Position numbers and translations under genes: made by a program | Virus record (IMG/VR): IMGVR_UViG_3300021475_000011 | Location: 3,534-67,533 of that record | Reading direction: 5' to 3' (one strand) | Length of the DNA: 64,000 bases | Source of the DNA: a virus | Notes under the pieces: model-generated | The model's input: only the letters and a program-made list of their open reading frames with translations | What the model was told of the DNA's origin: nothing | The model's database searches: none | Shown: one piece after another, positions 7,814 to 47,723 of the stretch | How the letters are laid out: every line of letters starts with the position of its first letter | Position numbering within the stretch: the first letter of the stretch is position 1

Positions 7814-8811
7814 TGCCACGCGGGGATGCTGAACGCGATCGGTGTGGTGGCGCTCGACGGTGCGTAGCCAGCGCCGCCGGCGTAGCTGGCCGTCAGGGTC
7901 GTGGTGCCAGCTTCGACGGTGGCGATCGGCAGGTCCAGCGTGTTGCCCGTCGCGGGCGCGATGTTCACCGACTGCGGGTAGTAGGCGAACTCGCCGAGCT
8001 GCCCGTCGTAGTTGCCGCGCGTGGCGATGACCGTCACCTTCAGGCTGCCTTCGAGCTGCACGCCGCCGGCGGTCACGACCGGCGCGCCGGGCGCCTGGTG
8101 GCCGTTGACGGTGGTGTGCGCGGTCACGGTCAGCGTGCCCGCGAGCGCCCATGTGTGGCCGTCGCCGTCGTAGCCTTCGATGCTCGGAGCAGGCAGCGCC
8201 GTGTAGGTCGCTTCGACGGTCGTGGTGGTGGTGAACGGTTCGATCTGCTCGACGCTCGTTTCGGTGACGGTCGTTTCACCTGACGAGTAGGTGACGACGA
8301 CGGTGTGCGCGCCGGTCGCCTGGTAGGTGACAGGGCAGGTGCCGCCTTCGACGCCGTTGCCGACGTTGATGCTGCACTCCAACGTGCCGTCGCTGTAGAG
8401 CGTCAGCACGCCTTCGGGGAGCGGCTGCGCGCCGTGTTCGTCGAACGCGCCGGCGTCGTAGCTGTAGGTCACGGCCAGCGGGTTCGAGGGGTCCTGCGTG
8501 AACGACGGGTCGAGCTTCGCGCGGAGCTTGTGAGCGGGCGCGGCCGGTGCGGCGGCGGCAGGCGTGGCGCCCGCCGGCGTCGTGCCGATGCAGTCGAAGT
8601 GCTTGACGTGGGTCACGACCATGACCGGGACGCGGTGGCCGTGGACGCGGTGGTAGACCGTCCTCAGCTTGCCGTGGACGCGGTGCGTCTTCGGGCGCTT
8701 GACGGTGACGGTCGTGATCTTGCAGCCGGCTGCCGGTGCTACACCGTAGTTTGTAGCACCTGCGAGTGTGGCGAGAGCGGCGAGTGAGAGTGTCTTTATG
8801 GAAGTGGTCAT
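7810..8811 (-). CDS. secreted Ig-like domain protein
   Basis: N-terminal signal peptide, K/H-rich Cys-bounded segment, then Thr-rich beta strands (PEGVLTLYSDG...GAHTVVVTYS; LTASYAGGAGYAPS) resembling bacterial Ig-like group 3. Confidence 0.65.
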   Translation of the reverse strand: MTTSIKTLSLAALATLAGATNYGVAPAAGCKITTVTVKRPKTHRVHGKLRTVYHRVHGHRVPVMVVTHVKHFDCIGTTPAGATPAAAAPAAPAHKLRAKLDPSFTQDPSNPLAVTYSYDAGAFDEHGAQPLPEGVLTLYSDGTLECSINVGNGVEGGTCPVTYQATGAHTVVVTYSSGETTVTETSVEQIEPFTTTTTVEATYTALPAPSIEGYDGDGHTWALAGTLTVTAHTTVNGHQAPGAPVVTAGGVQLEGSLKVTVIATRGNYDGQLGEFAYYPQSVNIAPATGNTLDLPIATVEAGTTTLTASYAGGAGYAPSSATTPIAFSIPAWQ

Positions 8812-8874
8812 GGGTACAGCATCGCAACCTCGCGGGGGATTGTCAAGGCGGGTGACACCCTACTGGACGGATGA
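8799..8874 (-). promoter_or_regulatory. leaderless promoter with operator (8841-8857) and conserved 5' motif
   Basis: Minus strand: TCATCCGTCCAG...TTGACA-N17-GATGCT-N6-ATGACCACTTCCA. Confidence 0.75.
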
Positions 8875-8880
8875 TCTACC

Positions 8881-8935
8881 GGGCGCCCGACACGCTGGCC
8901 GGGCGCCCCGGTCAAATCTGACCGGCGCCGGTCAG
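8881..8935 (-). terminator. stacked hairpins after the 3D-domain gene
   Basis: GGGCGCCCG/CGGGCGCCC stem (8881-8908) and a perfect 18-bp palindrome CTGACCGGCGCCGGTCAG (8918-8935). Confidence 0.45.
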
Positions 8936-12904: not shown

Positions 12905-13491
12905 GAGCGAACACGAACCGACATCGTGGCGGCCATCTGCGCCTCGCTGCCGTCCTCGAAGACCACGCGGACCCTGCGGTGGATGCGCTCGGTCGAGGCG
13001 ATCGTGCGCCACTCGCCGTCGTGGCGAATCGTCAGGCCCGAGTACAGCTCGTTGGCGTCCATCGGCTTCACGGGCGGCTTCGTCACGACCTCATCCCACG
13101 GGTACTGACGGGCGAGCGAGGCGACGTGCAGCGCTTCGCGGTCGTACTCGTCGGCCAGCTCGGCAGGCGCCGGCGGGATGCAGCCACGGTGGCGAGCATC
13201 CACGCGCAGGACTGCCTCCGTGCGGACCTGCTCGTCGGTCGGCTGCTCGCGGCCGGCGCTCAAGAGCCAGCCCTGCCCGTCGTAGGTGGCGCCACAGCCG
13301 GCGCAGGTGTGGGTCTGCTCGCCGCCGAACGGCACGTCCTCGATCGTCGCGCCGCATGTGCAGTCGTAGCTTCCGTTGGCGCGCTGACCCTGCGGGACGT
13401 TGCGGTCGCGGTGCCAGGCGAGCTTCTTCACTTCGATGGTGACGGGAGCGGTGGCGCTCATGGTGTGGTCCTCTCGGGTGGAAGTGGTCAT
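12901..13491 (-). CDS. Zn-ribbon protein
   Basis: CTCG...CAGCG; leaderless MTTS start at 13491 or SD-led in-frame ATG at 13461. Confidence 0.6.
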   Translation of the reverse strand: MTTSTREDHTMSATAPVTIEVKKLAWHRDRNVPQGQRANGSYDCTCGATIEDVPFGGEQTHTCAGCGATYDGQGWLLSAGREQPTDEQVRTEAVLRVDARHRGCIPPAPAELADEYDREALHVASLARQYPWDEVVTKPPVKPMDANELYSGLTIRHDGEWRTIASTERIHRRVRVVFEDGSEAQMAATMSVRVRS

Positions 13492-13545
13492 GTCAACTAT
13501 GGTGACACTCGCGGGGTCAGGCTTCAAGCGCTCTGGACGAACGTA
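13479..13545 (-). promoter_or_regulatory. leaderless promoter with operator (13491-13507)
   Basis: TTCGTCCAG...TTGAAG-N17-CACCAT-N7-ATGACCACTTCCAC; TGTCA-N7-TGACA covers -10 to +1. Confidence 0.7.
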
Positions 13546-13556
13546 TGAGAACAGCA

Positions 13557-13583
13557 GCGGGGCGCCTGACCTACAGCGCCCCG
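13557..13583 (-). terminator. intrinsic terminator-like hairpin
   Basis: GCGGGGCGC/GCGCCCCGC stem downstream of the 13613 ORF. Confidence 0.55.
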
Positions 13584-13612
13584 CCGTGTTTCCCTCTCCC
13601 CCCGTCCCCCGA

Positions 13613-13930: not shown

Positions 13931-14232
13931 CAGCGGTTCTCGATCGAGCGGAGCTCGCCGCCGGCGTCGGTGAAGCGGCCAAGGCGTCGGGCCGACTCGC
14001 CGTTGCCGCGTAGCAGGTTGCCGGGGAGCGCGTGCAGGATGGTCGGGTCGTCGCGGTGGCGCATCAGCAGGAACTCGGCGCCGCGCTTGCCCGTGAGCAG
14101 GTAGGGCAGCTCGGCGGCTGTGCTCTCGCCCTCGCGGCTGGTCACGGTGTACTCACGCGGGCTGAGCGTGTGCGAGTCCTTCACGACGACGATGCTGGTA
14201 GCTGCTGTGTGGTGATCCGTGGAAGTAGTCAT
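13930..14232 (-). CDS. hypothetical protein (leaderless MTTS start)
   Basis: ATG at the predicted +1 of the promoter. Confidence 0.6.
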   Translation of the reverse strand: MTTSTDHHTAATSIVVVKDSHTLSPREYTVTSREGESTAAELPYLLTGKRGAEFLLMRHRDDPTILHALPGNLLRGNGESARRLGRFTDAGGELRSIENR

Positions 14233-14286
14233 GTCAAGCATGGTGACACGCTCGACGCCCAACCACAACCCCTCTGGACGGACGTA
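14220..14286 (-). promoter_or_regulatory. leaderless promoter with operator (14232-14248)
   Basis: TCCGTCCAG...TTGTGG-N17-CACCAT-N7-ATGACTACTTCCAC. Confidence 0.7.
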
Positions 14287-14631
14287 CTACTCGGGCAGCT
14301 CGGGGACCTCAACCGCATAGATGTCGTCGATGGGCAGGAACATCAGCGGCTCGCCATCGACCTCGAGCACCATCCCACCGTGCTCGTACCTGACGATCTG
14401 GCCGGGCACCACGTCGAGCGGCAACTGTTCGCCGTGCTTGCCCTTGCGGGAGCCGACGGCCAGCACGATCGCGCGGCGTTCCTCTTCGCGGACGGTCGCC
14501 GGCAGGTGCAGGCCGCTCGCGCGCTGCGGCGGCGGCACGGGCTTGACGATGATCCGCGGGCCCATGACCTCGATCACGGCGCTGCCCGTCGGGCGGTCGG
14601 TGCTGGCGACGGCTGTGGTGTGCTCGCTCAT
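14287..14631 (-). CDS. groES: co-chaperonin GroES (Cpn10)-like
   Basis: MGPRIIVKP...ASGLHLP...IVLAVGS...PLDVVPGQIV...G...EVDGE...DDIYAV. Confidence 0.85.
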   Translation of the reverse strand: MSEHTTAVASTDRPTGSAVIEVMGPRIIVKPVPPPQRASGLHLPATVREEERRAIVLAVGSRKGKHGEQLPLDVVPGQIVRYEHGGMVLEVDGEPLMFLPIDDIYAVEVPELPE

Positions 14632-14744
14632 ACGATCGCGCTCCACAGGTGAACACAGCCGGCGATGGTCGCCGTGACGGCCAGCGCCGCTATGCAGCCC
14701 ACCACGACGTAGGCGAGCGCGACGCCGGCCTTCTCGCTGGTCAC
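14628..14744 (-). CDS. small membrane protein
   Basis: 38 aa with a single hydrophobic helix; coupled overlaps. Confidence 0.5.
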   Translation of the reverse strand: MTSEKAGVALAYVVVGCIAALAVTATIAGCVHLWSAIV

Positions 14745-15094
14745 GAGCGAGCGGCTTCCTCTGCCGCCTCCTTGGCGTCTTCGTGCGCGCGCTTCGCCGA
14801 CTTCAGCACCTTCGGGTCCTCCAAGTCGGCGTCCGTCAGGATGCCGTGGCACCGTGCCAGTCCGCGAGCGACGCGCATCTTTGCGTCCTCGATCGCGGTC
14901 TTGGCAAGGGCATACTCGCGGTTGCGAGCCGCGCTCAGGATCGCTCCCGAGTTGGAGAACTCGTCGAGCTTCAAGCGAAGACCCTGCTGCGTCAGCAGTT
15001 CGGTCTTGTCGAAGGCCAGCGTAAGAAGCTGGTGGACGGTGAGCGTGCCCGCCGGGCGCCGCTCGATCGGCTGGACCTGCTCGTCGTCGTTCAT
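14741..15094 (-). CDS. Acb2/Tad1-like helical hairpin protein (putative anti-defence)
   Basis: REYALAKTAIEDAKMRVARG resembles the Tad1/Acb2 RExAxAxTxxEEAxM helix; GGAGG RBS. Confidence 0.5.
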   Translation of the reverse strand: MNDDEQVQPIERRPAGTLTVHQLLTLAFDKTELLTQQGLRLKLDEFSNSGAILSAARNREYALAKTAIEDAKMRVARGLARCHGILTDADLEDPKVLKSAKRAHEDAKEAAEEAARS

Positions 15095-15212
15095 CCTGCC
15101 CTCCGTGTGTCGGTGATGGGAACTCGCCCGCGCAGCATACACGCCCGGCCAGTCCATAACCCATCATCCGTACTATGGGTTAACGGACTTTCCGCACGTA
15201 AAGTCGGGAAAC

Positions 15213-15644
15213 TCAGAACGGCACGCCGTCGTCTTCGGGCGCAGGCGCCGGCGGCTCGGGATCGGCGAGCAGCCGGTCGATGGTCTTGCCGCCGCTCAGG
15301 CGCTTCACGGCCGCCGCGATCGTGCCCGCGCAGCGCACCGCGGCCACCTGCTCGTCCGTGGTCATCAGCGGCAGCAGGTCGAGCCGGTGGCCGTCGTAGG
15401 CGGCGTGGCAGGTGTCGGTGCTCGTCGCCGGGCCGCACAGCTCGACCACATGGTCAGGGTTCACCCACAGGATCGTCTCGCTGACCTCCGGGCGCGGCTC
15501 GTCGTGGACGCGGCCGATGGTGTGCGCCGCCTCAAGAGAGCGGCCGAGCTCGGCGAGCTGGAACACGTCGAGGCCGCACGCGCGACACCGGCCCTTCTCG
15601 TCCACCTTCGCGCGTGCCGCTGACCAATCCCGCTGCACGCTCAC
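15213..15644 (-). CDS. HNH endonuclease-like protein
   Basis: CRAC...LEAAHTIG...VVELCG...CHAAYD. Confidence 0.7.
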   Translation of the reverse strand: MSVQRDWSAARAKVDEKGRCRACGLDVFQLAELGRSLEAAHTIGRVHDEPRPEVSETILWVNPDHVVELCGPATSTDTCHAAYDGHRLDLLPLMTTDEQVAAVRCAGTIAAAVKRLSGGKTIDRLLADPEPPAPAPEDDGVPF

Positions 15645-16123
15645 GGCGTCAGTTCAGCCTCGCGCTTCTGCGCCGAGAGGATCGACTGCCGCAGGCTGGC
15701 AGCCCGCTCCTTGCTCTTGATCCACTTCTCAAGCGCTCGAATCTCGGCTTCCAGCTCGACGTACTCAACCCACATTTTCGGGTTCTGCTCCTTCGCCCGG
15801 ATGCGGGCCTCGGCCTCCATGATCCGCGACGGCCTGCCCTTCAGCGACGCGGGCAGCTTGTTCTCGGGGTCGGCTGCGTGCTCGAGCATTTCCCGCTCGA
15901 TCGCGCACATGGCCTCGTCCACGACCGCCTCCCATTGCAGCTTCAGCCCGAGCTCGCCGTCGGTGACGCCCTCGAACTTCTTGATCGCCTGCCCCAGCCG
16001 CGCGGACGCCGAGTCGAGGCCACGCGCGTCGAGCGCCAGGTCCGTCATCAGCGACATCGGGTCGATCCTGATGTCCACCGTGCGCGCCGGCGGTGGCTGC
16101 TGCGAGTCGTCGAGCGTGGTCAT
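15641..16123 (-). CDS. coiled-coil hypothetical protein
   Basis: MTTLDDSQ...; helical; coupled overlaps. Confidence 0.6.
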   Translation of the reverse strand: MTTLDDSQQPPPARTVDIRIDPMSLMTDLALDARGLDSASARLGQAIKKFEGVTDGELGLKLQWEAVVDEAMCAIEREMLEHAADPENKLPASLKGRPSRIMEAEARIRAKEQNPKMWVEYVELEAEIRALEKWIKSKERAASLRQSILSAQKREAELTP

Positions 16124-16902
16124 ACGAACGACCTGCGCTGCTGCTTGCGGGCGAGCGCCACGCGGTCGAGCCGTTCGTGCAGCGCGGCGACCGACAGGAA
16201 GTCCTCTAGTTCGCCGACGCCGCGCTCGACTTCGCCGGGGGTGCCGTCGGCGTGCAGGTGCAGCAGCTCCGTGTGGCAGACGGCGAAGCCGGTCAGCTCG
16301 AGGTAGGCGGCGGCGTAGGCGGCGACCTGAATGTGGGCGCTGTCGTAGATCGCCTTGCTCGTCTTCGCGTCGCCGAGCACGAGGCCACCACAGCCACAGG
16401 TGCAGCTCCGCAGATAGTCGAACGTGCCGGCGTAGCGGTGCGCCAGGCTGATGATCGGGACCTCCGTCGAATGGAACACGGGGCGCGTGTCGAGGACCCA
16501 ACCGGCAAGGCTCTGATGGAAAGGCCGCTCGACCTCGGGCAGCTCGTGGAACGGTGGCGGCCCGTCGTCGCCGGCGTACATCGTCAGCGCCTCGTGGACG
16601 TTCGTGCCGCGCAGCGCGGCTTCGTCGCGCAGGTCGATCGGCCGGACCTTCTTCTCGGCCAGGTACATGACCGCCTCCTCGGCGGTGGAGAAGAACACGC
16701 CGTCGTTGTTCATGGCGACCATCGCCTCGACGGTGCGCGTGAAGGCCCACCACGTCAGGGCCTCGGACTTGTCGATGACGCCCAATATCTTCGTGACGCT
16801 CGGCAGCGTGAAGCTCTCGACGCCGGCGGCTGTGTGGACGGTGTAAGCGTGCTTGACGGGCTCGAAGTCCACCACCACGTCGCCGTAGCGCACAGTCTTC
16901 AC
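16120..16902 (-). CDS. PD-(D/E)XK (RecB/Cas4-like) exonuclease
   Basis: LPSVTKIL...RGTNVHEAL...YAGTFD...LGDAKTS...QVAAY. Confidence 0.88.
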   Translation of the reverse strand: MKTVRYGDVVVDFEPVKHAYTVHTAAGVESFTLPSVTKILGVIDKSEALTWWAFTRTVEAMVAMNNDGVFFSTAEEAVMYLAEKKVRPIDLRDEAALRGTNVHEALTMYAGDDGPPPFHELPEVERPFHQSLAGWVLDTRPVFHSTEVPIISLAHRYAGTFDYLRSCTCGCGGLVLGDAKTSKAIYDSAHIQVAAYAAAYLELTGFAVCHTELLHLHADGTPGEVERGVGELEDFLSVAALHERLDRVALARKQQRRSFV

Positions 16903-17149
16903 AGGACGACACCGACCACGCGCAGCACAGTACCGGGCGCGAAGATCGTGGGCTCCGTCACCACTTCACCTGACAGTGGCTCGGGCGCGGGCAGGCCGCC
17001 GATGCTGTTGCAGCCGCAAGCCTCGACGGCGTGCTCGTCCACGATCATCTTCCAGACCTCCTCGGCCCACTCGGATCGGCCAGGTGCCCCCCCCCCGACG
17101 GAACATGGAAGGTCCCGCAGGTGGTGATGATGCGTGCGTAGACCTTCAC
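16899..17149 (-). pseudogene. small ORF frameshifted at a G10 tract
   Basis: The GTG-to-TGA span is 251 nt with coupled overlaps at both ends; the frame breaks at the C10 run (17087-17096). Confidence 0.5.
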
Positions 17150-18108
17150 GACGCCACGCCCGCGCGCTCGGGCATGTCGCGCACGCGCAGGTCAGGCGGA
17201 AGGTCGTCGAGCGCCGTGCCCGCGCGCGCGCCGCCGAGCTGCTTGACGAACAGCGCGGTCGCGCCGTCCGTGTCCTGCCAGCACTCGTCGCGGCAGTAGT
17301 CGCGCAGCGCGCGCACCCACTCCAACTTCATCGGCCTGTGGCCGGCGCCGCTCTCGCCGCCGACGATCAGCCAGTCGATCAGCTCGAGGTCCAGCCCGCG
17401 CCCCTGGTAGCCGTCCTCCCACGGCCGCCACGCGAAGACCGGCGCGTCACCCACCGGGTACGTCTCGTGCTCGGCGTCGGTCATGTATTCGGCGTCGGGC
17501 AGCAGCGGGCCAAGCAGCGGCTCGGCGCTGATGAACCTGATGTGCGCCGGCGTTTCGCGGAGCAGGTCGGCGCGGTGGACAAAGCGGCGGTTCTCGATCG
17601 ACGTGCCGAGCCAGATATTCGTGAGCTGGTCGAAGCCGTCGTTCACCACGTCGGCGATGATGAAAGCGTTGGGGATGCCGCGCCCGAGCTCGTGGACCTG
17701 CTCCATGACCTCCCGTGCGAACGGCCAGCTTTTCAGCAGGTCGCGCATCCTCTCGGGGCGCTTCGTGAGCACCTGAAACGTGTGCTGGTGAGCGAGCGCC
17801 ATCACGGCGAAGACCTTGGCTATGTAGTCGTCGGGGATCAGCTCGTGGAACAGGTCGCTCATGCTGTTGACGAACACCATCCGGGGCGCGTCGAAGGGCT
17901 TGGCTTTGCGCAGCGGCTCGGTCAGCTTGTGAGGCTTCAGCAGCACGTTCCGGGCGGCGTTGGCTGGCGTCCACGGCGCGGGGGTCTGTCCGTAGCGCAG
18001 GCTCAGCGTCTCGGCGTAGCAGTTGGCGCAGCCGGGCGACACCTTCGAGCAGCCATGCACGGGGTTCCAACTGACCTCCGTCCACTCGATCTTCGTCTCG
18101 TTCGCCAT
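17146..18108 (-). CDS. DUF5131 (phage Gp37/Gp68) family protein
   Basis: TKIEWT..WNPVHGCSKVSPGCANCYA, FVNSMSDLFH, QVLTKRP, FISAEPLLG, IVGGESG. Confidence 0.93.
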   Translation of the reverse strand: MANETKIEWTEVSWNPVHGCSKVSPGCANCYAETLSLRYGQTPAPWTPANAARNVLLKPHKLTEPLRKAKPFDAPRMVFVNSMSDLFHELIPDDYIAKVFAVMALAHQHTFQVLTKRPERMRDLLKSWPFAREVMEQVHELGRGIPNAFIIADVVNDGFDQLTNIWLGTSIENRRFVHRADLLRETPAHIRFISAEPLLGPLLPDAEYMTDAEHETYPVGDAPVFAWRPWEDGYQGRGLDLELIDWLIVGGESGAGHRPMKLEWVRALRDYCRDECWQDTDGATALFVKQLGGARAGTALDDLPPDLRVRDMPERAGVAS

Positions 18109-18257
18109 CAGCTCACGACCTCGTGACCTTCCTCGTCGGCGCAGCCGGCGTGGACCCACTCGTCGTCCACGTTCACGATCAGCTCGCCCTCGACGATCTG
18201 ATCCTCGCAGATGCCGCACCGTGTCGAGCGGGTCGCCTCGATCGCGTGGAGCTTCAC
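18108..18257 (-). CDS. small Zn-ribbon protein
   Basis: 49 aa, CGIC...WVHAGC; coupled on both sides; not in the ORF track. Confidence 0.6.
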   Translation of the reverse strand: MKLHAIEATRSTRCGICEDQIVEGELIVNVDDEWVHAGCADEEGHEVVS

Positions 18258-18712
18258 GAGAACGCCGTGCCCTCGGTCAGCAGCTTCACGCGCTCGTCAA
18301 CGGCCTGCTCAGCCTTGCGCTCGCGGATCGCGCTCTGCCGATTCGGGCAGGCGGGCAGACCGTCCGGCCCGTTCTGGCGCGGCAGCAGCACGCCGCACAT
18401 CGGGCAGATCGTGGCGTCGATGCAGCGAACCTCGCCCTCGAAGTTGACGGGCACGTAGGCGCCGCACAGCGACCACTCGATCGTGAGCTCGACGCCGCGC
18501 CGGTGGAGCGCCAACCGCTGCGCCTCCTGCTGCTCGAGCGCGGTCACGCGCAGCCGCTCAAGCTCGGCGCGATCCTCGGGTGACATCGCGGCGAGCTGGC
18601 GGTCGGCCTCAGCCTGCGCGGCCTGCTCCGCCGCGCGCTCGCGGGCGCGCTCTGCGGCTGCCTCGCGTTCGGCGGCGTTCGGGGCTCGCTGGCGCTTGCG
18701 TTTCTTGCCCAT
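18254..18712 (-). CDS. hypothetical protein with Zn ribbon
   Basis: MGKKRKRQR...CPMCG. Confidence 0.6.
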   Translation of the reverse strand: MGKKRKRQRAPNAAEREAAAERARERAAEQAAQAEADRQLAAMSPEDRAELERLRVTALEQQEAQRLALHRRGVELTIEWSLCGAYVPVNFEGEVRCIDATICPMCGVLLPRQNGPDGLPACPNRQSAIRERKAEQAVDERVKLLTEGTAFS

Positions 18713-19701
18713 CAGGTCCGCTCGGCGAAGAACGCGGCCAGCTCGGCGATCTGCTCGCCGGTGGCTTCTTGGATGTCGGAGAGGCCCATCTGTGTCAGCT
18801 TGGCAACACATTCGGCGCGAGTGCAGGACGAGTCGGCGTAGGCGACGCGCAGCGCCACGATCGGGTCCTGCGCCTCGGCAAGCGCGGCGTCCGCCTCCGC
18901 GTCGTCGCCGGCGGGCGCGCCCTGCGCTTCGGCGTCGGCGTGCGCGGCCTCCTGCTCAGCGACCGCGCCATCGGTGTCGGTGTCGCCGCTCGGCTGCTGC
19001 TGCTCGTCCTCGGCGGGATCGGGCGGGACCTCGGGCAGCTCCGCCTCGATGTCGCCCTGCGCCTCCGTCACGTCGCCGTGGTCGAGCGGCTGACCGAAGC
19101 GCTCCACGACGGTCGCCATGCGCAGCCAGCCGCCATAGCGCTGCCTCAGCTTCACTTCGGTCTTCGACGGCAGATACCACTTCCCGCCGACGAACTGAAG
19201 TTCGGTCGCCTCGACGTACAGGCGCGGCGCGAAGTAGAGAAACGCGCCGATGCCGTACTTGACACACGCGCGCTTGAAGGCGTCACTGTGAACACCCTTG
19301 AGCGCCATGTCGCCGTTCTTGCCAAGCTCCTCCGTGCCGACGTAGCTCACGTCCGAGCGTTTGCGGTCGAAGACCTCGAGCACGCAGTTCACGCCGAAGC
19401 CCTTGGCGCCGGCGGGATACAGCGGGCCGTAGCCGTCATCCCACGCGCCCGGCGTGACGACGTTCAGGCGCTCGGCCGCGGTGCGCGCCTCGATGTAGAC
19501 GACGACGAGGCCCTTCCCGAAGCTCGCCTGCTGACCCTCGCCCTTCTTCTTCGGGTTGACCTGAATCTTGAAGCTCACGGCCTCCGGTGTGAACGGGCGG
19601 CGGAACAGCGGCATCGCCTCGTCGAGCGACTTGGCCGGGTGAATGACCTCGCCCTCGGGCTCTGCCGGCTCCTGCTCAGCCGGTGGTGCTGCGTCGGCCA
19701 T
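18712..19701 (-). CDS. Rad52/Rad22-family (Sak-like) ssDNA-annealing protein
   Basis: RPFTPEAV...YIEARTAAERLN...KGVHSDAFKRACVKYGIGAFLY. Confidence 0.88.
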   Translation of the reverse strand: MADAAPPAEQEPAEPEGEVIHPAKSLDEAMPLFRRPFTPEAVSFKIQVNPKKKGEGQQASFGKGLVVVYIEARTAAERLNVVTPGAWDDGYGPLYPAGAKGFGVNCVLEVFDRKRSDVSYVGTEELGKNGDMALKGVHSDAFKRACVKYGIGAFLYFAPRLYVEATELQFVGGKWYLPSKTEVKLRQRYGGWLRMATVVERFGQPLDHGDVTEAQGDIEAELPEVPPDPAEDEQQQPSGDTDTDGAVAEQEAAHADAEAQGAPAGDDAEADAALAEAQDPIVALRVAYADSSCTRAECVAKLTQMGLSDIQEATGEQIAELAAFFAERT

Positions 19702-19925
19702 CAGTGACGATCGCCGGCGGGGAAGACCTCGAAGCTGCTCCTGCACGTCAGCACGTCGTCGCGGTCCATGATCGACTTGTTGATGGCGTCCTCGATCGCG
19801 GGCACGTCGCCGATGCTGTCAGCCTGCACGCGGACGGTGAACGTGATCGGGTAGCCGTTGGCCTCCCAATCCTCCTGCTCGGCGGTGCGCGGGTCCTGCA
19901 TCGGTGCGGTGCTCGGCTCATCCAT
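19701..19925 (-). CDS. hypothetical protein
   Basis: GGAGG RBS, MDEPSTAP... Confidence 0.55.
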   Translation of the reverse strand: MDEPSTAPMQDPRTAEQEDWEANGYPITFTVRVQADSIGDVPAIEDAINKSIMDRDDVLTCRSSFEVFPAGDRH

Positions 19926-20232
19926 CGGGCGCTGCCTCCTGTAGATCGGTGGTGGTCGGGACGGTCCCGAAGGGGATGTGAAAGAAGCGCTCAAGCATGA
20001 CGGCGAGCAGGCCGATCGTTTCGAGCAGCGGCAGCTCGCAGCGCGCGATGTGCCGGGCCTCGTCGCGGCCGTAGTCGAGGCCGCGCTGCCACGCCTTTGC
20101 AAAGCGCTCGGGGTCCATGTGCAGCAGCGCGTTCAGCGGATTGGCGCCGCGCTTCTCGCACTCCGCGCAGCCATCGCGCAAGAGCTGGTCGGGGTGAAAG
20201 CCGGGCAGCTCCTCGTGGTAGTCGTGGGCCAC
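19918..20232 (-). CDS. hypothetical protein (leaderless GTG start)
   Basis: TGt-CAGGCT-N7-GTG; operator at 20232-20248 overlaps the start. Confidence 0.6.
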   Translation of the reverse strand: MAHDYHEELPGFHPDQLLRDGCAECEKRGANPLNALLHMDPERFAKAWQRGLDYGRDEARHIARCELPLLETIGLLAVMLERFFHIPFGTVPTTTDLQEAAPDG

Positions 20233-20250
20233 GTCAAGCAGCCTGACAGG

Positions 20251-20303
20251 TCGAAGAAAAGGCTGCCCGCCCGGCGACCACTTCCACGCGATGCCGGGCG
20301 GGC
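20251..20303 (-). terminator. intrinsic terminator whose loop carries the complement of the conserved 5' leader motif
   Basis: 11-bp stem GCCCGCCCGGC/GCCGGGCGGGC followed by AGCCTTTTCTT on the minus strand; loop contains GTGGAAGTGGTC. Confidence 0.75.
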
Positions 20304-20337
20304 CTCGGCCCACTCACCGAAGCTGAGCAGGACAAGA

Positions 20338-21219
20338 TCATGGCGCGACCGCCGGGGTGACATCAACGGCGACGATCAGCGACTCGGGGCCCGCGGCCAG
20401 CGCCGACAGGACCGTCTCTCGCCACTCGCGCTCGCTCGCGCCCTCCTCCAACCACTCGCCGCCGGCGCACAGCGCGAACGGCAGGCCGACACGGCGGCGT
20501 TCGATCAGGTCGCGGTAGAGCGTCGAGGTCATCACGTTGGGATCGCCCGAGATTTCTGCGGGGTCGGCGTTCAGGTCGCCGTACTCGTCGCGCAGGAAGA
20601 ACGCCGTGAACTGGCCGCCGATCGTCCAGCTCTCCCACTTCCCGGCCGGGTTGCGCCTGGTCGTGTAGACGCCCGTCCCGCCGCACAGGCCGCAGTCGTC
20701 GCGCAGCTCCGGGCTCACGTCGATGCCGCACTCGGGGTCCGGCTTGCCGTAGGCGTCGTGGGTGCGCGCCAGCTCGTCGATCGCCTCAGCCTTCGCGGCG
20801 TTGAAGTTGTCCCACACGTCGGCGAGCTGGTCGTCAGCAGCACGGATCGCCTCCGCGTCCGGCGGCGGCCACAGGCCGAGCTCGCGGAGCTGTTCGACGC
20901 TGCCCTCGTGCTGAGCGATGCGCTTCACCGTCTGTTCGGCGTGCGTGTTGGTGGGATCGACCGACCACGCCAGCAGATGAACAGCGCGCGTCTTCGCGCG
21001 GACCTCCTCGGCGACCTCGCGGCTGAACTCGTCGCGGCCGTTCACGATGTCGGTTGCCCACTGGACGGCGGCGCGGCCAACACACGAGCAAGGCGACTCC
21101 CACGGATCGACGAGGCGCGCGTTGTCGAACGGCGCGAGCGCGTCGTCCACCATCCGAGCGATCCCCGAGTGCTCGATCACGTCGCCGCTGACGACGACCG
21201 CTGCAAGAAGGTGACGCAC
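20338..21219 (-). CDS. conserved phage hypothetical protein
   Basis: CGLCGGTG...RNPAGKWESWTIGG resembles the NPxxKWDW..GG phage family. Confidence 0.65.
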   Translation of the reverse strand: MRHLLAAVVVSGDVIEHSGIARMVDDALAPFDNARLVDPWESPCSCVGRAAVQWATDIVNGRDEFSREVAEEVRAKTRAVHLLAWSVDPTNTHAEQTVKRIAQHEGSVEQLRELGLWPPPDAEAIRAADDQLADVWDNFNAAKAEAIDELARTHDAYGKPDPECGIDVSPELRDDCGLCGGTGVYTTRRNPAGKWESWTIGGQFTAFFLRDEYGDLNADPAEISGDPNVMTSTLYRDLIERRRVGLPFALCAGGEWLEEGASEREWRETVLSALAAGPESLIVAVDVTPAVAP

Positions 21220-21222
21220 GGC

Positions 21223-21249
21223 TCAGCGGCGAGTAGTGGAAGTGGTCAT
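21223..21249 (-). CDS. 8-aa leaderless leader peptide MTTSTTRR
   Basis: ATG ACC ACT TCC ACT ACT CGC CGC TGA at the predicted +1; stop is 3 nt before the next GTG. Confidence 0.5.
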   Translation of the reverse strand: MTTSTTRR

Positions 21250-21316
21250 GCCCTGCATCCTGCCAGCCGATCAGACGGGTGTCAAGGGACTTGTCGCGGA
21301 CTGGACGGATGACGTA
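21237..21316 (-). promoter_or_regulatory. leaderless promoter
   Basis: TCATCCGTCCAG...TTGACA-N17-CAGGAT-N7-ATGACCACTTCCAC; degenerate operator at 21280-21296. Confidence 0.75.
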
Positions 21317-21969
21317 TCGAGCTGGCGCAGGCCACCGCTGCGAAGCTGCGCGCGGCGCGGGCGCGGCGCCTCCAACTCCGCGCGATCAACGCCGGCGAGC
21401 GCGAGCTGCTGATCCTCGATCGAGCGCCGGCGCAGCGCCAGATAGCTTTCGCGCTCCTGCGCCCGGAACGTGGCGATCCCCCCGCCGCCACGCAGCGCAT
21501 CGCGCCACGCTGCCCGCCTGGTCCTCGTCATCCACTCGTCGATCAGCGGGTGCGACCATGCGCTCGGCTTACGGATACGACTCGGCCGACACTCACAATC
21601 CGCCGTGGTCGTCGCCGCCGTGGTGGTCGTGACCTCCACGAACCCGCTGCCGTCGCAGCGCTTCAGCGGACAGTCACCCTCGAACGCCGCCGGCATCGGC
21701 AGCAGCACACGGCCTTCGACCTCGACAAGCACCTGATCCCACTCCGGGGTCGGAGACGCCAGCTCGAGCGCACGGGCCGCGATCATGCCGCCCGTCGGCG
21801 GGTGCTCACGGCCAGCGGTGGCGAAGCTCAGCACGACCGCCGTAGCGGTGTCAGCGGCGACACCCTCGACGAGCGGGAACTGCACCGCTGCCGCCTCGAC
21901 CGGGATTGGTGCGTGCGGCCACAGGCCACGCATCCGGGCGACGAGCTCGGTCCACTCGCTCGGCTTCAT
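21271..21969 (-). CDS. helicase loader/inhibitor (G39P-like) protein
   Basis: MKPSEWTELVARMRGLWP...HPPTGGMI...; follows the initiator gene; CDGSG..CEC Zn site. Confidence 0.55.
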   Translation of the reverse strand: MKPSEWTELVARMRGLWPHAPIPVEAAAVQFPLVEGVAADTATAVVLSFATAGREHPPTGGMIAARALELASPTPEWDQVLVEVEGRVLLPMPAAFEGDCPLKRCDGSGFVEVTTTTAATTTADCECRPSRIRKPSAWSHPLIDEWMTRTRRAAWRDALRGGGGIATFRAQERESYLALRRRSIEDQQLALAGVDRAELEAPRPRRAQLRSGGLRQLDTSSVQSATSPLTPV

Positions 21970-22832
21970 TCGCCGCGCGCCCGCTGCTCGTCGGCGATCC
22001 GCTGCAAGGCGTCCATGTCAGACCCCGCTCGCTCCCGCGCCGAGCCACCGGCGCGCTTGCCTTCGACCTCCTGCCTGATCTGCAAGACGAGAGGCGCCCA
22101 CTTTTCGCGGAGCTTCGGCATCGACCGGATGTTCGCTGCCCAAAAGTGGTGAGAGGTCGCCCATGTGATGACGTATTCAACCTGCCGGACAGAAGCGCCG
22201 TCAAGGTCAAGCAGCCGCCTTGCCGCATCGTGCCACTTTTTCGTGTGTGGATTCGGCCGAGGCCCACCGGCGCCCTGCGCCTCCAAGGCGTCAGCGAGCA
22301 GGTCGCAGAGCTTGGCGACCTCCGGGCGATCGACGGCGAGCTCGTCTTGATCGTGGTCGTCTTCGCCCTGGTCGCCGTCGGGCGGCACGACCGACGAAAC
22401 CCCCGCAGGGGGTAGTTCCTCTTCCCTTCCCTTCCCTTCCCTTCCCCCCTGTAGTGCTACAGGAGGACTACTGTAGTCGTCTCGTATCGACCCCTCAGCG
22501 CCGGGCGGCGGCAGCTTCGATTTGGTCGGCTTCTGGATCGCCTGGTGCTTGTTGAAGTTGGTCACATGCAGGTACTTTTGACCGCCGTGGACGTAGCGCG
22601 TGATGGCGCCCGTCGAGGCGATCAGCGAGAGCCACAGGTCCACTTCGTCGGCGGTCACGTCGTCGTCGTAGGGGAACACGTTGGACTTGACGACGTGCGG
22701 TCGGCCGCGCTGGCGGCCCTCGTCGTCCGAGTGTTGGATCAGGCCAATGAACAGCAGCCGGCAGTCGCGTGGGAGAGCGCCGATCGCCTCGTCTTCCCAC
22801 AACTCCGGCTTGATAGTCCTGATCCTCGCCAC
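21966..22832 (-). CDS. phage replication initiator protein
   Basis: ARIRTIKPELWEDE...RLLFIGL...DDEGR; GREGKGREE linker; FWAANIRSMPKLREKW. Confidence 0.85.
   Translation of the reverse strand: MARIRTIKPELWEDEAIGALPRDCRLLFIGLIQHSDDEGRQRGRPHVVKSNVFPYDDDVTADEVDLWLSLIASTGAITRYVHGGQKYLHVTNFNKHQAIQKPTKSKLPPPGAEGSIRDDYSSPPVALQGGREGKGREEELPPAGVSSVVPPDGDQGEDDHDQDELAVDRPEVAKLCDLLADALEAQGAGGPRPNPHTKKWHDAARRLLDLDGASVRQVEYVITWATSHHFWAANIRSMPKLREKWAPLVLQIRQEVEGKRAGGSARERAGSDMDALQRIADEQRARGE
22417..22478. repeat. (CTTCC)n tract plus two short palindromes; candidate origin
   Basis: CTTCC tandem repeats, then CCTGTAGtgCTACAGG and GACTACtGTAGTC inside the initiator linker. Confidence 0.4.
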
Positions 22833-22971
22833 CGCTGCTCCCTCGTCCTGCGAGGCGATGGCGTCCGTCTCACCGGATAGCTTCTCGTGCTCGCAACTCT
22901 GATCGGTGGCGAAACCTAGCGCGCGGCGTGGACACGTTCCCGTCGCGCGCTGCTTGTTCCGGGGTTTTTCT

Positions 22972-23214
22972 TCAGGCGGCCACGCGCTCGTCAAGCAGCT
23001 CGTAGAGCGCCTGACGGCTGATCCCGAGGCGACGTGCAGCCTCAGTGATCGTGACGGCCTCCTTGTCGTGCGGGTCGGCCTGCGCCTTCACCTGCTTGAC
23101 CACTTCGCGGGTAAGCTCCTGCAACGCCGCGTCGTTCTCGTCTCGCAGTTCACGGCGGACCCCGATCCGGTCGAGCTGCTGTCGTAGGTCTACTGCGGCC
23201 ACGGTGCTCTCCAC
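22972..23214 (-). CDS. small HTH protein (Cro-like)
   Basis: TITEAARRLGISRQALYELLD; first gene of the replication operon. Confidence 0.75.
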   Translation of the reverse strand: MESTVAAVDLRQQLDRIGVRRELRDENDAALQELTREVVKQVKAQADPHDKEAVTITEAARRLGISRQALYELLDERVAA

Positions 23215-23987: not shown

Positions 23988-24050
23988 GCGCGGCGGGCGG
24001 TCAGGGGATGAGGGAGAACGCCCGCCGCGCGGCTCACCGTGGGGATGAGC
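23988..24050 (-). ncRNA. candidate two-hairpin C-rich sRNA (6C-like architecture)
   Basis: Extended -10 TGcTACCTT (24058-24066); hairpins GCTCATC-CCCAC-GGTGAGC and a 12-bp stem with loop TTCTCCCTCATCCCCTGAC. Confidence 0.45.
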
Positions 24051-47203: not shown

Positions 47204-47519
47204 TGAGTCCTCCAGTTATCGGCATGGGTGAACAGCCGACCCCTGGATGACCTCAATGGGAGCTTGCCGTGCGCAGTACGGTGGCCGCGCGCAGTAGCTC
47301 AGGCCGAGTCGCTTCTTGTGCGTCGCAGATTACCACCGGCCCGGACGGAACCGACGAGTCGTTTCACCGTCGCGTAAAACGTGAAACATCGCCGGCGGCG
47401 ACCGGGGCGGCTGTTAGCTTGCGCGCGTCAAGCGGCGGGCGCCGTGCTCGCCTCGAAGTGCAGCCGCAGGTCGAAGCTCGAAGGGCATCCTCCGCGCGCC
47501 GCACAGAATGGAGGAAGTC

Positions 47520-47723
47520 ATGCCCACGGGCAAGGTCAAGTGGTTCAGCGACGAGAAGGGCTTTGGGTTCATCACGCCCGACGACGGCGGGAAGGACTTG
47601 TTCGTCCACCACAGCGGCATCAACGCCGAGGGCCACCGCACGCTGAACGAGGGCGCGGCCGTCAGCTTCGACTCGGAGCAGGGCGCGAAGGGTCCGAAGG
47701 CCGTCAACGTGGTGGCGCTCTAG
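47520..47723 (+). CDS. cspA: cold-shock protein (CSD)
   Basis: [15 protein letters not shown]...DLFVHHS...GPKAVNV; GGAGG RBS. Confidence 0.96.

Follow-up and report, generated by a model that had tools for sequence, protein, structure and literature searches.

Control of transcription in one arm of a phage genome by short asymmetric intergenic repeats is exemplified by the stoperators of the Cluster A phages (L5 gp71), which number in the tens, are oriented with transcription and are bound by a known repressor. Antisense RNAs displayed in a loop are represented among phages by P4 CI and P1 C4. In the Cluster K mycobacteriophages a 13-bp asymmetric Start-Associated Sequence (SAS) is found at many gene starts, and four of these phages carry one reverse-oriented copy that is not at a gene start; the report on the SAS does not decide between an RNA and a protein as its partner (PMC3203893), and a survey of 2025 states, in the part that concerns the SAS and ESAS, that their function still calls for experiments (PMC12699233). 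The Gordonia phage Vardy, of Cluster DJ, has five intergenic copies of a 50-bp motif in mid-genome with a -10 element, and in the account given of the motif its terminal adenine is proposed as the translational start (PMC9671010); regulatory RNA arising from early termination of a phage transcript figures in part of a further report (PMC7547250). Here we describe a motif repeated at four predicted leaderless gene starts of the virus record IMGVR_UViG_3300021475_000011, the complement of which lies in the loop of a terminator-like hairpin of the same genome. The window analysed, 64,000 nt in all, comprises bases 3534–67533 of this single 67,533-bp record (68% G+C), and positions are those of the window unless stated otherwise.

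The SAS and ESAS, as set out in the relevant parts of those reports, offer a likeness to this motif, that of a 13-bp asymmetric sequence that recurs where genes begin, within the non-structural half of an actinophage genome, with almost every copy in one orientation, before unrelated genes and conserved across subclusters. The SAS, however, stands 3–7 bp upstream of the start codon and has an AGGAG Shine–Dalgarno core and a different consensus, whereas the present motif, of another sequence and without AGGAG, overlaps the start codon and takes in the next four codons of a leaderless transcript; by these features it does not qualify as an SAS. Here, moreover, there are four copies, each with its own promoter, and the copy in opposite orientation lies in a terminator-like loop. 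With Vardy the locus shares a repeated leaderless promoter cassette and interspersed terminators, but the -10 element of Vardy is TATAAT, the sequences are unrelated, and the part of that paper dealing with the motif describes neither a conserved coding-side leader nor a hairpin complement. Judged by sequence or position, the cassette is a member of neither family. The stoperators are likewise short asymmetric intergenic repeats; in contrast to them, the present motif has five or six copies, one of them inverted in a hairpin loop, and Pfam found no repressor among the 30 small or plus-strand proteins scanned. In common with P4 CI, P1 C4 and the RNAs made by early termination, the hairpin would provide a short phage RNA, defined by a terminator and complementary to several target sites, yet those RNAs, some of which are cut from longer precursors, act on leadered transcripts at internal positions or at the ribosome-binding site, whereas here the candidate targets are leaderless mRNAs at their very 5' ends, and the candidate regulator is the mRNA's own terminator hairpin. 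Our literature searches brought up no account of a terminator loop that carries the complement of a leader. Where a paper on leaderless translation touches on control by small RNAs (sRNAs), it lists this as 'Unknown', no reports being known to its authors (PMC9031893).

The repeated start motif and its promoter

The motif ATGACYACTTCCA occurs on the minus strand at the ATG codons at 8811, 13491, 14232 (with a C-to-T variant) and 21249, in agreement with the original prediction at all four sites, and every coordinate given in that prediction proved correct; 0.02 copies would be expected, and none of 100 shuffles reached four. The shorter form GACYACTTCCA, for which a scan of the whole genome had been called for, proved to be above background frequency, with five copies in the window against 0.01 expected and none of 100 shuffles reaching five. 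The fifth copy, inverted relative to the leaders, occupies 20276–20286 of the plus strand. The motif observation is real, non-random and conserved. A sixth copy, GACTACTTCCA, is found at genome positions 2506–2516 on the minus strand, about 1 kb beyond the left end of the window; it has the leader orientation and sits inside a 551-codon open reading frame (ORF), with neither an ATG nor promoter boxes, and its chance expectation is about 0.01.

Alignment of the four ATG sites showed the motif to be the downstream end of a longer conserved unit, in which, at all four sites, a CGTCCAG box, a gap, a -35 element, a 17-nt spacer ending in TGN, a -10 element (NANNNT) and a further 6–7 nt lead up to C-ATGACYACTTCCA. 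The -35 hexamers (TTGACA twice, TTGAAG and TTGTGG) resemble TTGACA, the spacers end in TGC, TGT, TGT or TGG, and the -10 elements (GATGCT, CACCAT twice and CAGGAT) all have A at position 2 and T at position 6. The sites fit the geometry of leaderless sigma-70/sigmaA-type promoters with an extended -10, in line with the leaderless transcripts predicted for them, and a regular expression for this generic geometry followed by ATG or GTG matched these four sites only on both strands of the 67.5 kb genome; a consensus scan requiring a TATAAT-like -10 gave no promoter at any of them. The gap between the CGTCCAG box and the -35 is 5, 5, 15 or 16 nt, giving two classes one helical turn apart, and the box looks like an activator or UP-like site. 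By the length of this gap the cassettes fall into two pairs, and the members of each pair have a -10 of the same type. Transcription would start at the A of the ATG, with which the distance of 6–7 nt from the -10 agrees. The motif is very probably the transcribed start (+1 to +14) of a portable cassette, composed of a promoter and a leaderless start, that the phage lineage has placed before four gene blocks.

Codon usage indicates which level of the motif is conserved. In 19 long genes ACT accounts for 2.2% of the codons for Thr and TCC for 7.8% of those for Ser, and because both of these rare codons are used at all four sites it is the nucleotides, and not the MTTS peptide, that are selected. 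Selection on RNA pairing, as first suggested, is one reading of the conserved nucleotides; a DNA operator, or an element for translation or promoter escape, would conserve them too. Nucleotides 4–14 contain no G in any of the four leaders, whereas 42 control starts have a mean of 3.3 and a minimum of one, and the 5' 14 nt are predicted to be unpaired with values of 0.55–0.85 (mean 0.43, maximum 0.63 in 20 controls). A soil RNA library yielded a 199-nt contig identical to 21035–21233 (0 differences) and no RNA contig upstream of 21249. Such a pattern agrees with a start near 21249 but is a weak hint and proves nothing, as contigs cannot show a transcription start and DNA may be present in the library. 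In the RNA run X3 no contig covered 20100–21023, the hairpin included, an absence that carries no information.

The cassettes are joined to their genes in different ways. At 13491 the cassette adds MTTSTREDHT before the internal Met at which homologues were called to start, and at 8811 it forms the start of a lipoprotein signal peptide. The cassette at 21249 opens an eight-codon leaderless mini-ORF, the stop codon of which is followed 3 nt on, in the same frame, by the GTG of a 293-aa gene, an arrangement that suggests termination–reinitiation coupling without a Shine–Dalgarno sequence; the 293-aa protein has no Pfam family. As separate observations, a perfect 9-bp hairpin with an 8-nt loop (8735–8760, minus strand) lies in the coding region of the lipoprotein signal peptide, about 50 nt downstream of the start at 8811, and a gene for a GroES-like co-chaperonin (14287–14631, minus strand; Pfam Cpn10, 4.6e-10) ends immediately upstream of the cassette at 14232.

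In related proteins, taken from protein clusters of other assemblies, MTTST or MTTSI starts are kept down to 45–56% protein identity, with divergence of the residues that follow. P0002 (56% identical to the 293-aa protein) reads MMAG-MTTST-VSPGTHQLAAVVV, with MTTST fused in frame so that one continuous frame results; P0005 (85%) reads MLD-MTTST, P0006 (48%) MTTSTLTL, P0008 and P0009 (85%) MTTSIKTL, and P0010 (45%) MTTSTKENL before a signal peptide of its own. In P0009, which is called from further upstream, the residues over the -35 and extended -10 equal those of the in-frame translation of the phage, and the spacer residues differ. At the DNA level three relatives, X2 (about 94–95% identical) and two of about 90% identity, X4 (a 25-kb contig) and X8, were aligned on 20100–21400, and 40 of the 209 differences were listed; among those listed, none at 21178–21269 is common to at least two contigs. 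In X8, 79 unrelated letters take the place of the 77 nt at 21146–21222 that code for the N-terminus of the 293-aa protein; the N-terminal 30 residues of P0039 are different, and the similarity of X8 resumes exactly at the TGA of the mini-ORF. The cassette boundary of X8 is thus marked by a mosaic joint.

The hairpin that carries the inverted copy

The original prediction placed the reverse complement of the leader in the loop of a strong terminator, and the 12-mer GACCACTTCCAC does lie within the 17-nt loop at 20276–20292. Under a first-order Markov model 0.0031 copies of it are expected when the plus strand of all 67.5 kb is considered, and the loops of the five strong intergenic hairpins amount to 66 nt in all, or 0.1% of the genome; given this low expectation together with this location, the loop copy is not a coincidence. 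The hairpin stands 35 nt past the TGA (20338–20340) of the 293-aa gene. The surrounding 111-nt region folds with z = -3.08 (1 of 200 shuffles was as good), and in the folded 3' untranslated region (UTR) the sequence GUGGAA forms a fully exposed hexaloop, all six nucleotides having P(unpaired) = 1.0, with GUGGU held in a weak inner helix (AUCGC/GUGGU) that includes two G.U pairs. The G+C-rich stem just past a stop codon fits an intrinsic terminator, but the short loop of such terminators is lacking, and a consensus terminator scan requiring loops of 3–8 nt did not list the hairpin because its loop is of 17 nt (or a hexaloop if the inner helix forms). The loop RNA (20276–20292, minus strand) contains a purine run, GGAAG, that resembles a Shine–Dalgarno core, and the leader is made up of pyrimidines and A only.

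Comparison with the relatives suggests on which strand the structure is formed. Position 20270 pairs with 20298. X2 has G>A at 20298 alone, giving U.G in the minus-strand RNA and C.A on the plus strand, and X4 combines the same change with C>T at 20270 to give U–A, so that a path from C–G through U.G to U–A, the classical one for a conserved RNA helix, can be traced for this one covarying pair only. It assigns the structure to the minus-strand transcript, and by this comparative evidence the hairpin is a conserved minus-strand RNA structure. Two changes in X4 and X8 shift the U4 run by 1 nt towards the stem and keep its length. Two other origins for the sequence were rejected: a coding frame opening at GTG 20313, as the four substitutions in X4 fall on codon positions 1, 2, 2 and 3 and calling by third-position G+C content (GC3) starts the gene at 20232; and a plus-strand promoter ending at the loop copy, for which there is no -10 at the right distance. 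Rfam gave no match at gathering score in the window and none at E <= 1 in 20150–21350, and no tRNA was found.

The hairpin would terminate the transcript started at 21249. That it stands after the gene driven from 21249 and ahead of genes for an Erf/Rad52-like protein, a DUF5131 protein and an exonuclease was borne out, whereas the HNH gene also named in the original prediction was not confirmed. These genes belong to a packed block of about 6 kb (Table 1) in which there is no promoter of cassette geometry, for which reason the recombination module would need read-through of the hairpin.

Pairing between the leaders and the loop is energetically favourable. The 12-nt leaders and the 12-nt loop complement form duplexes of -18.8 to -21.1 kcal/mol, and the whole 14-mers pair with the 17-nt loop at -19.1 to -21.4 kcal/mol, against -12.8 for the best of 42 control 5' 14-mers. 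Opening the 12 loop nucleotides costs 7.6 kcal/mol, which leaves net pairing of -10.8 to -13.1 kcal/mol with the stem intact, and when the 12 nt are forced open the 11-bp stem still forms (-43.3 kcal/mol). The C>U change in the 14232 copy, at +6, keeps a G–U wobble with the loop, as had been pointed out, and a second C>U change, at +14 in the 8811 copy, also keeps a G.U pair. In these models an RNA pairing of leader and loop is plausible.

The reading first attached to this arrangement was an antitermination switch, and this specific claim was not supported. The complementarity is limited to loop nucleotides, at most one U.G pair being added beyond the 12 nt, and the stem is left undisturbed; since the complement covers the loop only and the stem still forms, pairing and the terminator stem are not alternatives. 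Cofolds of a 25-nt leader with the terminator gave nearly equal energies, the intact terminator being favoured with the leaders of 21249 and 8811 and the opened form with those of 13491 and 14232.

Table 1. Positions of the cassettes, of the hairpins and of the genes associated with them
Feature	Position	Strand	Description
Cassette 1	21237–21307	-	box 21301–21307; -35 TTGACA 21280–21285; 17-nt spacer ending TGG; -10 CAGGAT 21257–21262; 7 nt to leader
Cassette 1 leader	21237–21249	-	ATGACCACTTCCA
Mini-ORF	21223–21249	-	MTTSTTRR; eight codons, leaderless, in-frame TGA; ends 3 nt before GTG of 293-aa gene
293-aa gene	20338–21219	-	driven by cassette 1; GTG start at 21219; homologues P0001 (90%) and P0002 (56%)
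Weaker first hairpin of 3' UTR	20304–20336	-	indels in all three relatives
Terminator-like hairpin	20265–20303	-	perfect 11-bp stem (11 G–C pairs), 20265–20275/20293–20303; 17-nt loop, AUCGCGUGGAAGUGGUC in RNA
Anti-leader	20276–20287	+	GACCACTTCCAC, read GUGGAAGUGGUC in minus-strand RNA; exact complement of leader nt +3 to +14
Tail	20253–20264	-	AGCCUUUUCUUC; U4 tract begins 4 nt after stem
Downstream gene block	14287–20232	-	about 6 kb of packed genes: Erf/Rad52-like 18712–19701, DUF5131 17146–18108, exonuclease 16120–16893, GroES-like 14287–14631
Cassette 2	14220–14280	-	box 14274–14280; -35 TTGTGG; -10 CACCAT; drives 100-aa gene
Cassette 2 leader	14220–14232	-	ATGACTACTTCCA
Hairpin just upstream of cassette 3	13557–13584	-	9-bp stem; 10-nt loop unrelated to motif; T-rich tail
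Cassette 3	13479–13539	-	box 13533–13539; -35 TTGAAG; -10 CACCAT; leader 13479–13491; drives 196-aa gene
Hairpin just upstream of cassette 4	8881–8908	-	perfect 9-bp stem; 10-nt loop unrelated to motif
Cassette 4	8799–8869	-	box 8863–8869; -35 TTGACA; -10 GATGCT; leader 8799–8811; drives 333-aa lipoprotein-like gene

Possible roles of the complementary loop

We propose, tentatively, that the hairpin at 20265–20303 would act as the intrinsic terminator or attenuator of the transcript of the first cassette and would display the anti-leader in its loop, the usual arrangement in antisense RNAs. Transcripts stopping at the hairpin, or a stable 3' fragment left after their decay, may supply the anti-leader RNA. 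The exposed GUGGAA hexaloop would pair first with nt +9 to +14 of the leaderless mRNAs, the pairing then extending to +3, and the resulting duplex would cover +3 to +14. Since ribosomes can load on a leaderless mRNA only when its 5' AUG region is free, such a duplex would shut translation of all four cassette-driven units, that of cassette 1 included, and the outcome would be a feedback or timing device for the early or DNA-metabolism arm. That the anti-leader blocks leaderless translation in this way is the reading we favour and a distinct possibility, although we would not yet call it the expected outcome. The wider statement, that the loop of the mRNA's own terminator is an anti-leader that pairs in vivo with the 5' ends of four leaderless mRNAs, either shutting their translation or opening the way into the recombination genes, falls just short of what we would call probable.

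Several points weigh against this reading. The U4 tract is short and begins 4 nt from the stem, and termination at the hairpin is something we infer from its sequence. Loops of 9–19 nt are usual in the hairpins of this phage, so the 17-nt size is not special. Among the differences listed, X4 has no change in the 17-nt loop, but with about 1.6 changes expected this is not significant; the X4 list appears to be complete for 20100–20356, to judge from its density there (24 differences over 257 nt, the contig as a whole averaging 123 over 1249 nt) and from the end of X4-only entries beyond it. Pairing in the inner helix is predicted for five of the 12 anti-leader nucleotides, and a 12-bp duplex within a 17-nt loop would be joined to the stem through 5 nt at one end and directly at the other, a strain that lies outside the energy model. 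The conserved -1 to +14 block, together with an upstream box at two positions 10–11 bp apart (one helical turn), also resembles protein–DNA regulation. The start module is not universal, as P0040 (66% identical to the 100-aa protein) starts MNTTTT, and P0011–P0014, P0041 and P0042 lack the module. The RNA evidence comes from a single contig. Finally, an Actinomycetota host, which would fit the leaderless promoters found here, is suggested by one hint only, a Solirubrobacteraceae metagenome-assembled genome (MAG) with a homologue of the lipoprotein.

The main alternative, without any RNA pairing, is that -1 to +14 (14–15 bp) constitutes the asymmetric site at which a phage or host DNA-binding protein would repress or activate the four promoters, the copy at 20276 and that outside the window being roadblock sites like stoperators. 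Such a DNA operator would account for conservation that begins at -1, outside the RNA, although the C at -1 is also the usual pyrimidine before a purine start; for the upstream CGTCCAG box, whose two distances from the -35 (5 or 15–16 nt) are one helical turn apart, as would suit face-specific contact by a protein; and for the sixth copy, which is in a coding region where there is no RNA hairpin. Binding of 13-bp asymmetric repeats by a repressor is, moreover, established in the Cluster A mycobacteriophages, according to the portion of that report which deals with them (PMC3203893). The operator does not explain why one copy should fall within the 66 nt of loop that the five strong intergenic hairpins have between them, when a protein site could lie anywhere intergenic, and the sites, five or six in number and with the loop copy opposite to transcription, are unlike stoperators in both respects. 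Among the 30 small or plus-strand proteins scanned, Pfam detected neither a helix–turn–helix (HTH) nor a repressor domain, and no nucleic-acid-binding fold was found when two cassette-driven proteins were folded: the model of the 100-aa protein (predicted local distance difference test score, pLDDT, 70.8) had no PDB match at E <= 0.001 (best 1.6), and that of the 196-aa protein (pLDDT 50.5) was unusable. Both negatives are weak evidence, as many phage regulators escape such searches. On balance we regard the operator as unlikely, if far from negligible.

Returning to pairing between leader and loop, the cassette 5' ends might, in cis from 21249 or in trans, pair with the nascent loop and slow or prevent closure of the terminator, giving read-through into the recombination module. 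The block at 20232–14287, of about 6 kb and without a cassette promoter, needs such read-through, this is the only terminator-like hairpin with an anti-leader in its loop, the pairing is favourable, and a rigid large loop could slow hairpin folding during a pause at the U tract. The complement, however, stops short of the stem and offers no alternative antiterminator structure, for which reason we rank antitermination below a block of translation by the anti-leader; in addition, the cofolds gave the mixed outcome described above, the weak U tract alone could make the terminator leaky, and the 5' end of a translated leaderless mRNA is occupied by ribosomes. We consider it improbable. A similarly small chance is given to the loop copy having no function, the leader being kept as a good leaderless start or for promoter escape and the inverted 12-mer being a tolerated relic of recombination. 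C/A-rich sequence past the AUG is reported, in the passage concerned, to enhance leaderless translation (PMC9031893), the leaders are G-free and open, loops tolerate any sequence, and the absence of loop changes in one 90% relative is not significant. Against this, identity at 13 of 13 nucleotides, with rare codons, would be unnecessary for a translation enhancer, no remnant of a cassette (box, -35 or -10) flanks the loop copy on the plus strand, and the chance of the 12-mer (0.003) jointly with its location in a hairpin loop is very small.

The phage lineage and what the cassette may mean

According to a GC3-based gene call nearly all genes of the virus are on the minus strand. They encode a portal, a prohead protease, an HK97-type capsid, an ORF of tape-measure size, a lysozyme, RusA and a replication initiator, and in addition an Erf/Rad52-like annealing protein, a DUF5131 protein, an exonuclease, a DNA methylase, a GroES-like protein and a cold-shock protein. 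The gene for the last of these (47508–47723, plus strand; Pfam CSD, 1.4e-27) lies within the structural module, on the strand opposite to almost all genes. The Csp proteins of bacteria are able to open RNA hairpins and to serve as antiterminators, and the protein is a candidate partner for the large-loop hairpins of the phage. One such hairpin, with a 10-bp G+C stem and a 19-nt loop (23990–24028), lies between the convergent genes for RusA (plus strand) and lysozyme (minus strand) and is likely to be a bidirectional terminator. Inside the replication-initiator gene, at 22423–22445, a tandem 5-nt repeat forms three overlapping copies of a 13-mer of GGAAG/GGGAA units, possibly the iterons of an origin, with a small hairpin nearby (22399–22413).

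The runs that contain the phage sequence are soil metagenomes. GenBank phages gave no DNA match for 19000–23000 and none for the 293-aa protein, and the best GenBank phage match of the capsid is 29–32% identical, which places the phage far from all GenBank phages. IMG/VR yielded no relative of the 293-aa, Erf-like or capsid proteins, nor of alignment A2, and searches of GTDB genomes and JGI metagenomes with the same alignment gave no match. Searches for the motif elsewhere led to candidates that were all discarded. A distant IMG/VR contig reached through DUF5131 (L119, 44%) had two one-mismatch motif matches against five for a reversed control pattern. A 15-mer scan of IMG/VR gave at least 118 single-copy matches, taken as chance, the 80 loci listed having one copy each, and tblastn of the phage proteome against the 15-mer loci produced only weak matches (23–28% identity), to six loci. 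A composite pattern (box, 38–52 nt, leader) hit 19 metagenome, one viral and 20 genome loci, all judged to be chance: no -35/-10 geometry was seen by eye in the first 20, none of the 20 genome loci passed the regular expression, and tblastn with 63 phage proteins showed the loci to be unrelated, except for weak tail-protein matches to L141 and L154. A repeat search and k-mer counts of the phage brought out nothing but G+C-rich coding repeats. The host could not be called from protein clusters of the GroES-like gene, which contained only viral and Planctomycetota Cpn10 sequences, and a haloarchaeal virus was ruled out by ordinary isoelectric points of the proteins and by Shine–Dalgarno-like sequences at some genes.

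The cassette, as a small and portable promoter with a leaderless start, stands before unrelated genes in frame, before a signal peptide or as an eight-codon mini-ORF coupled to a GTG, and represents modular regulatory evolution in an otherwise uncharacterized lineage of soil phages. If the loop does act as proposed, it would suggest a way, open to experiment, to account for the single reverse-oriented copies found with start-associated motifs in other actinophages, motifs whose function has been in question since 2011, and it would be the first RNA–RNA regulator known to act on leaderless mRNAs. Such mRNAs are abundant in Actinobacteria and Archaea, and a compact natural case, with four targets and one hairpin in about 1 kb, would make their control by sRNAs open to test.

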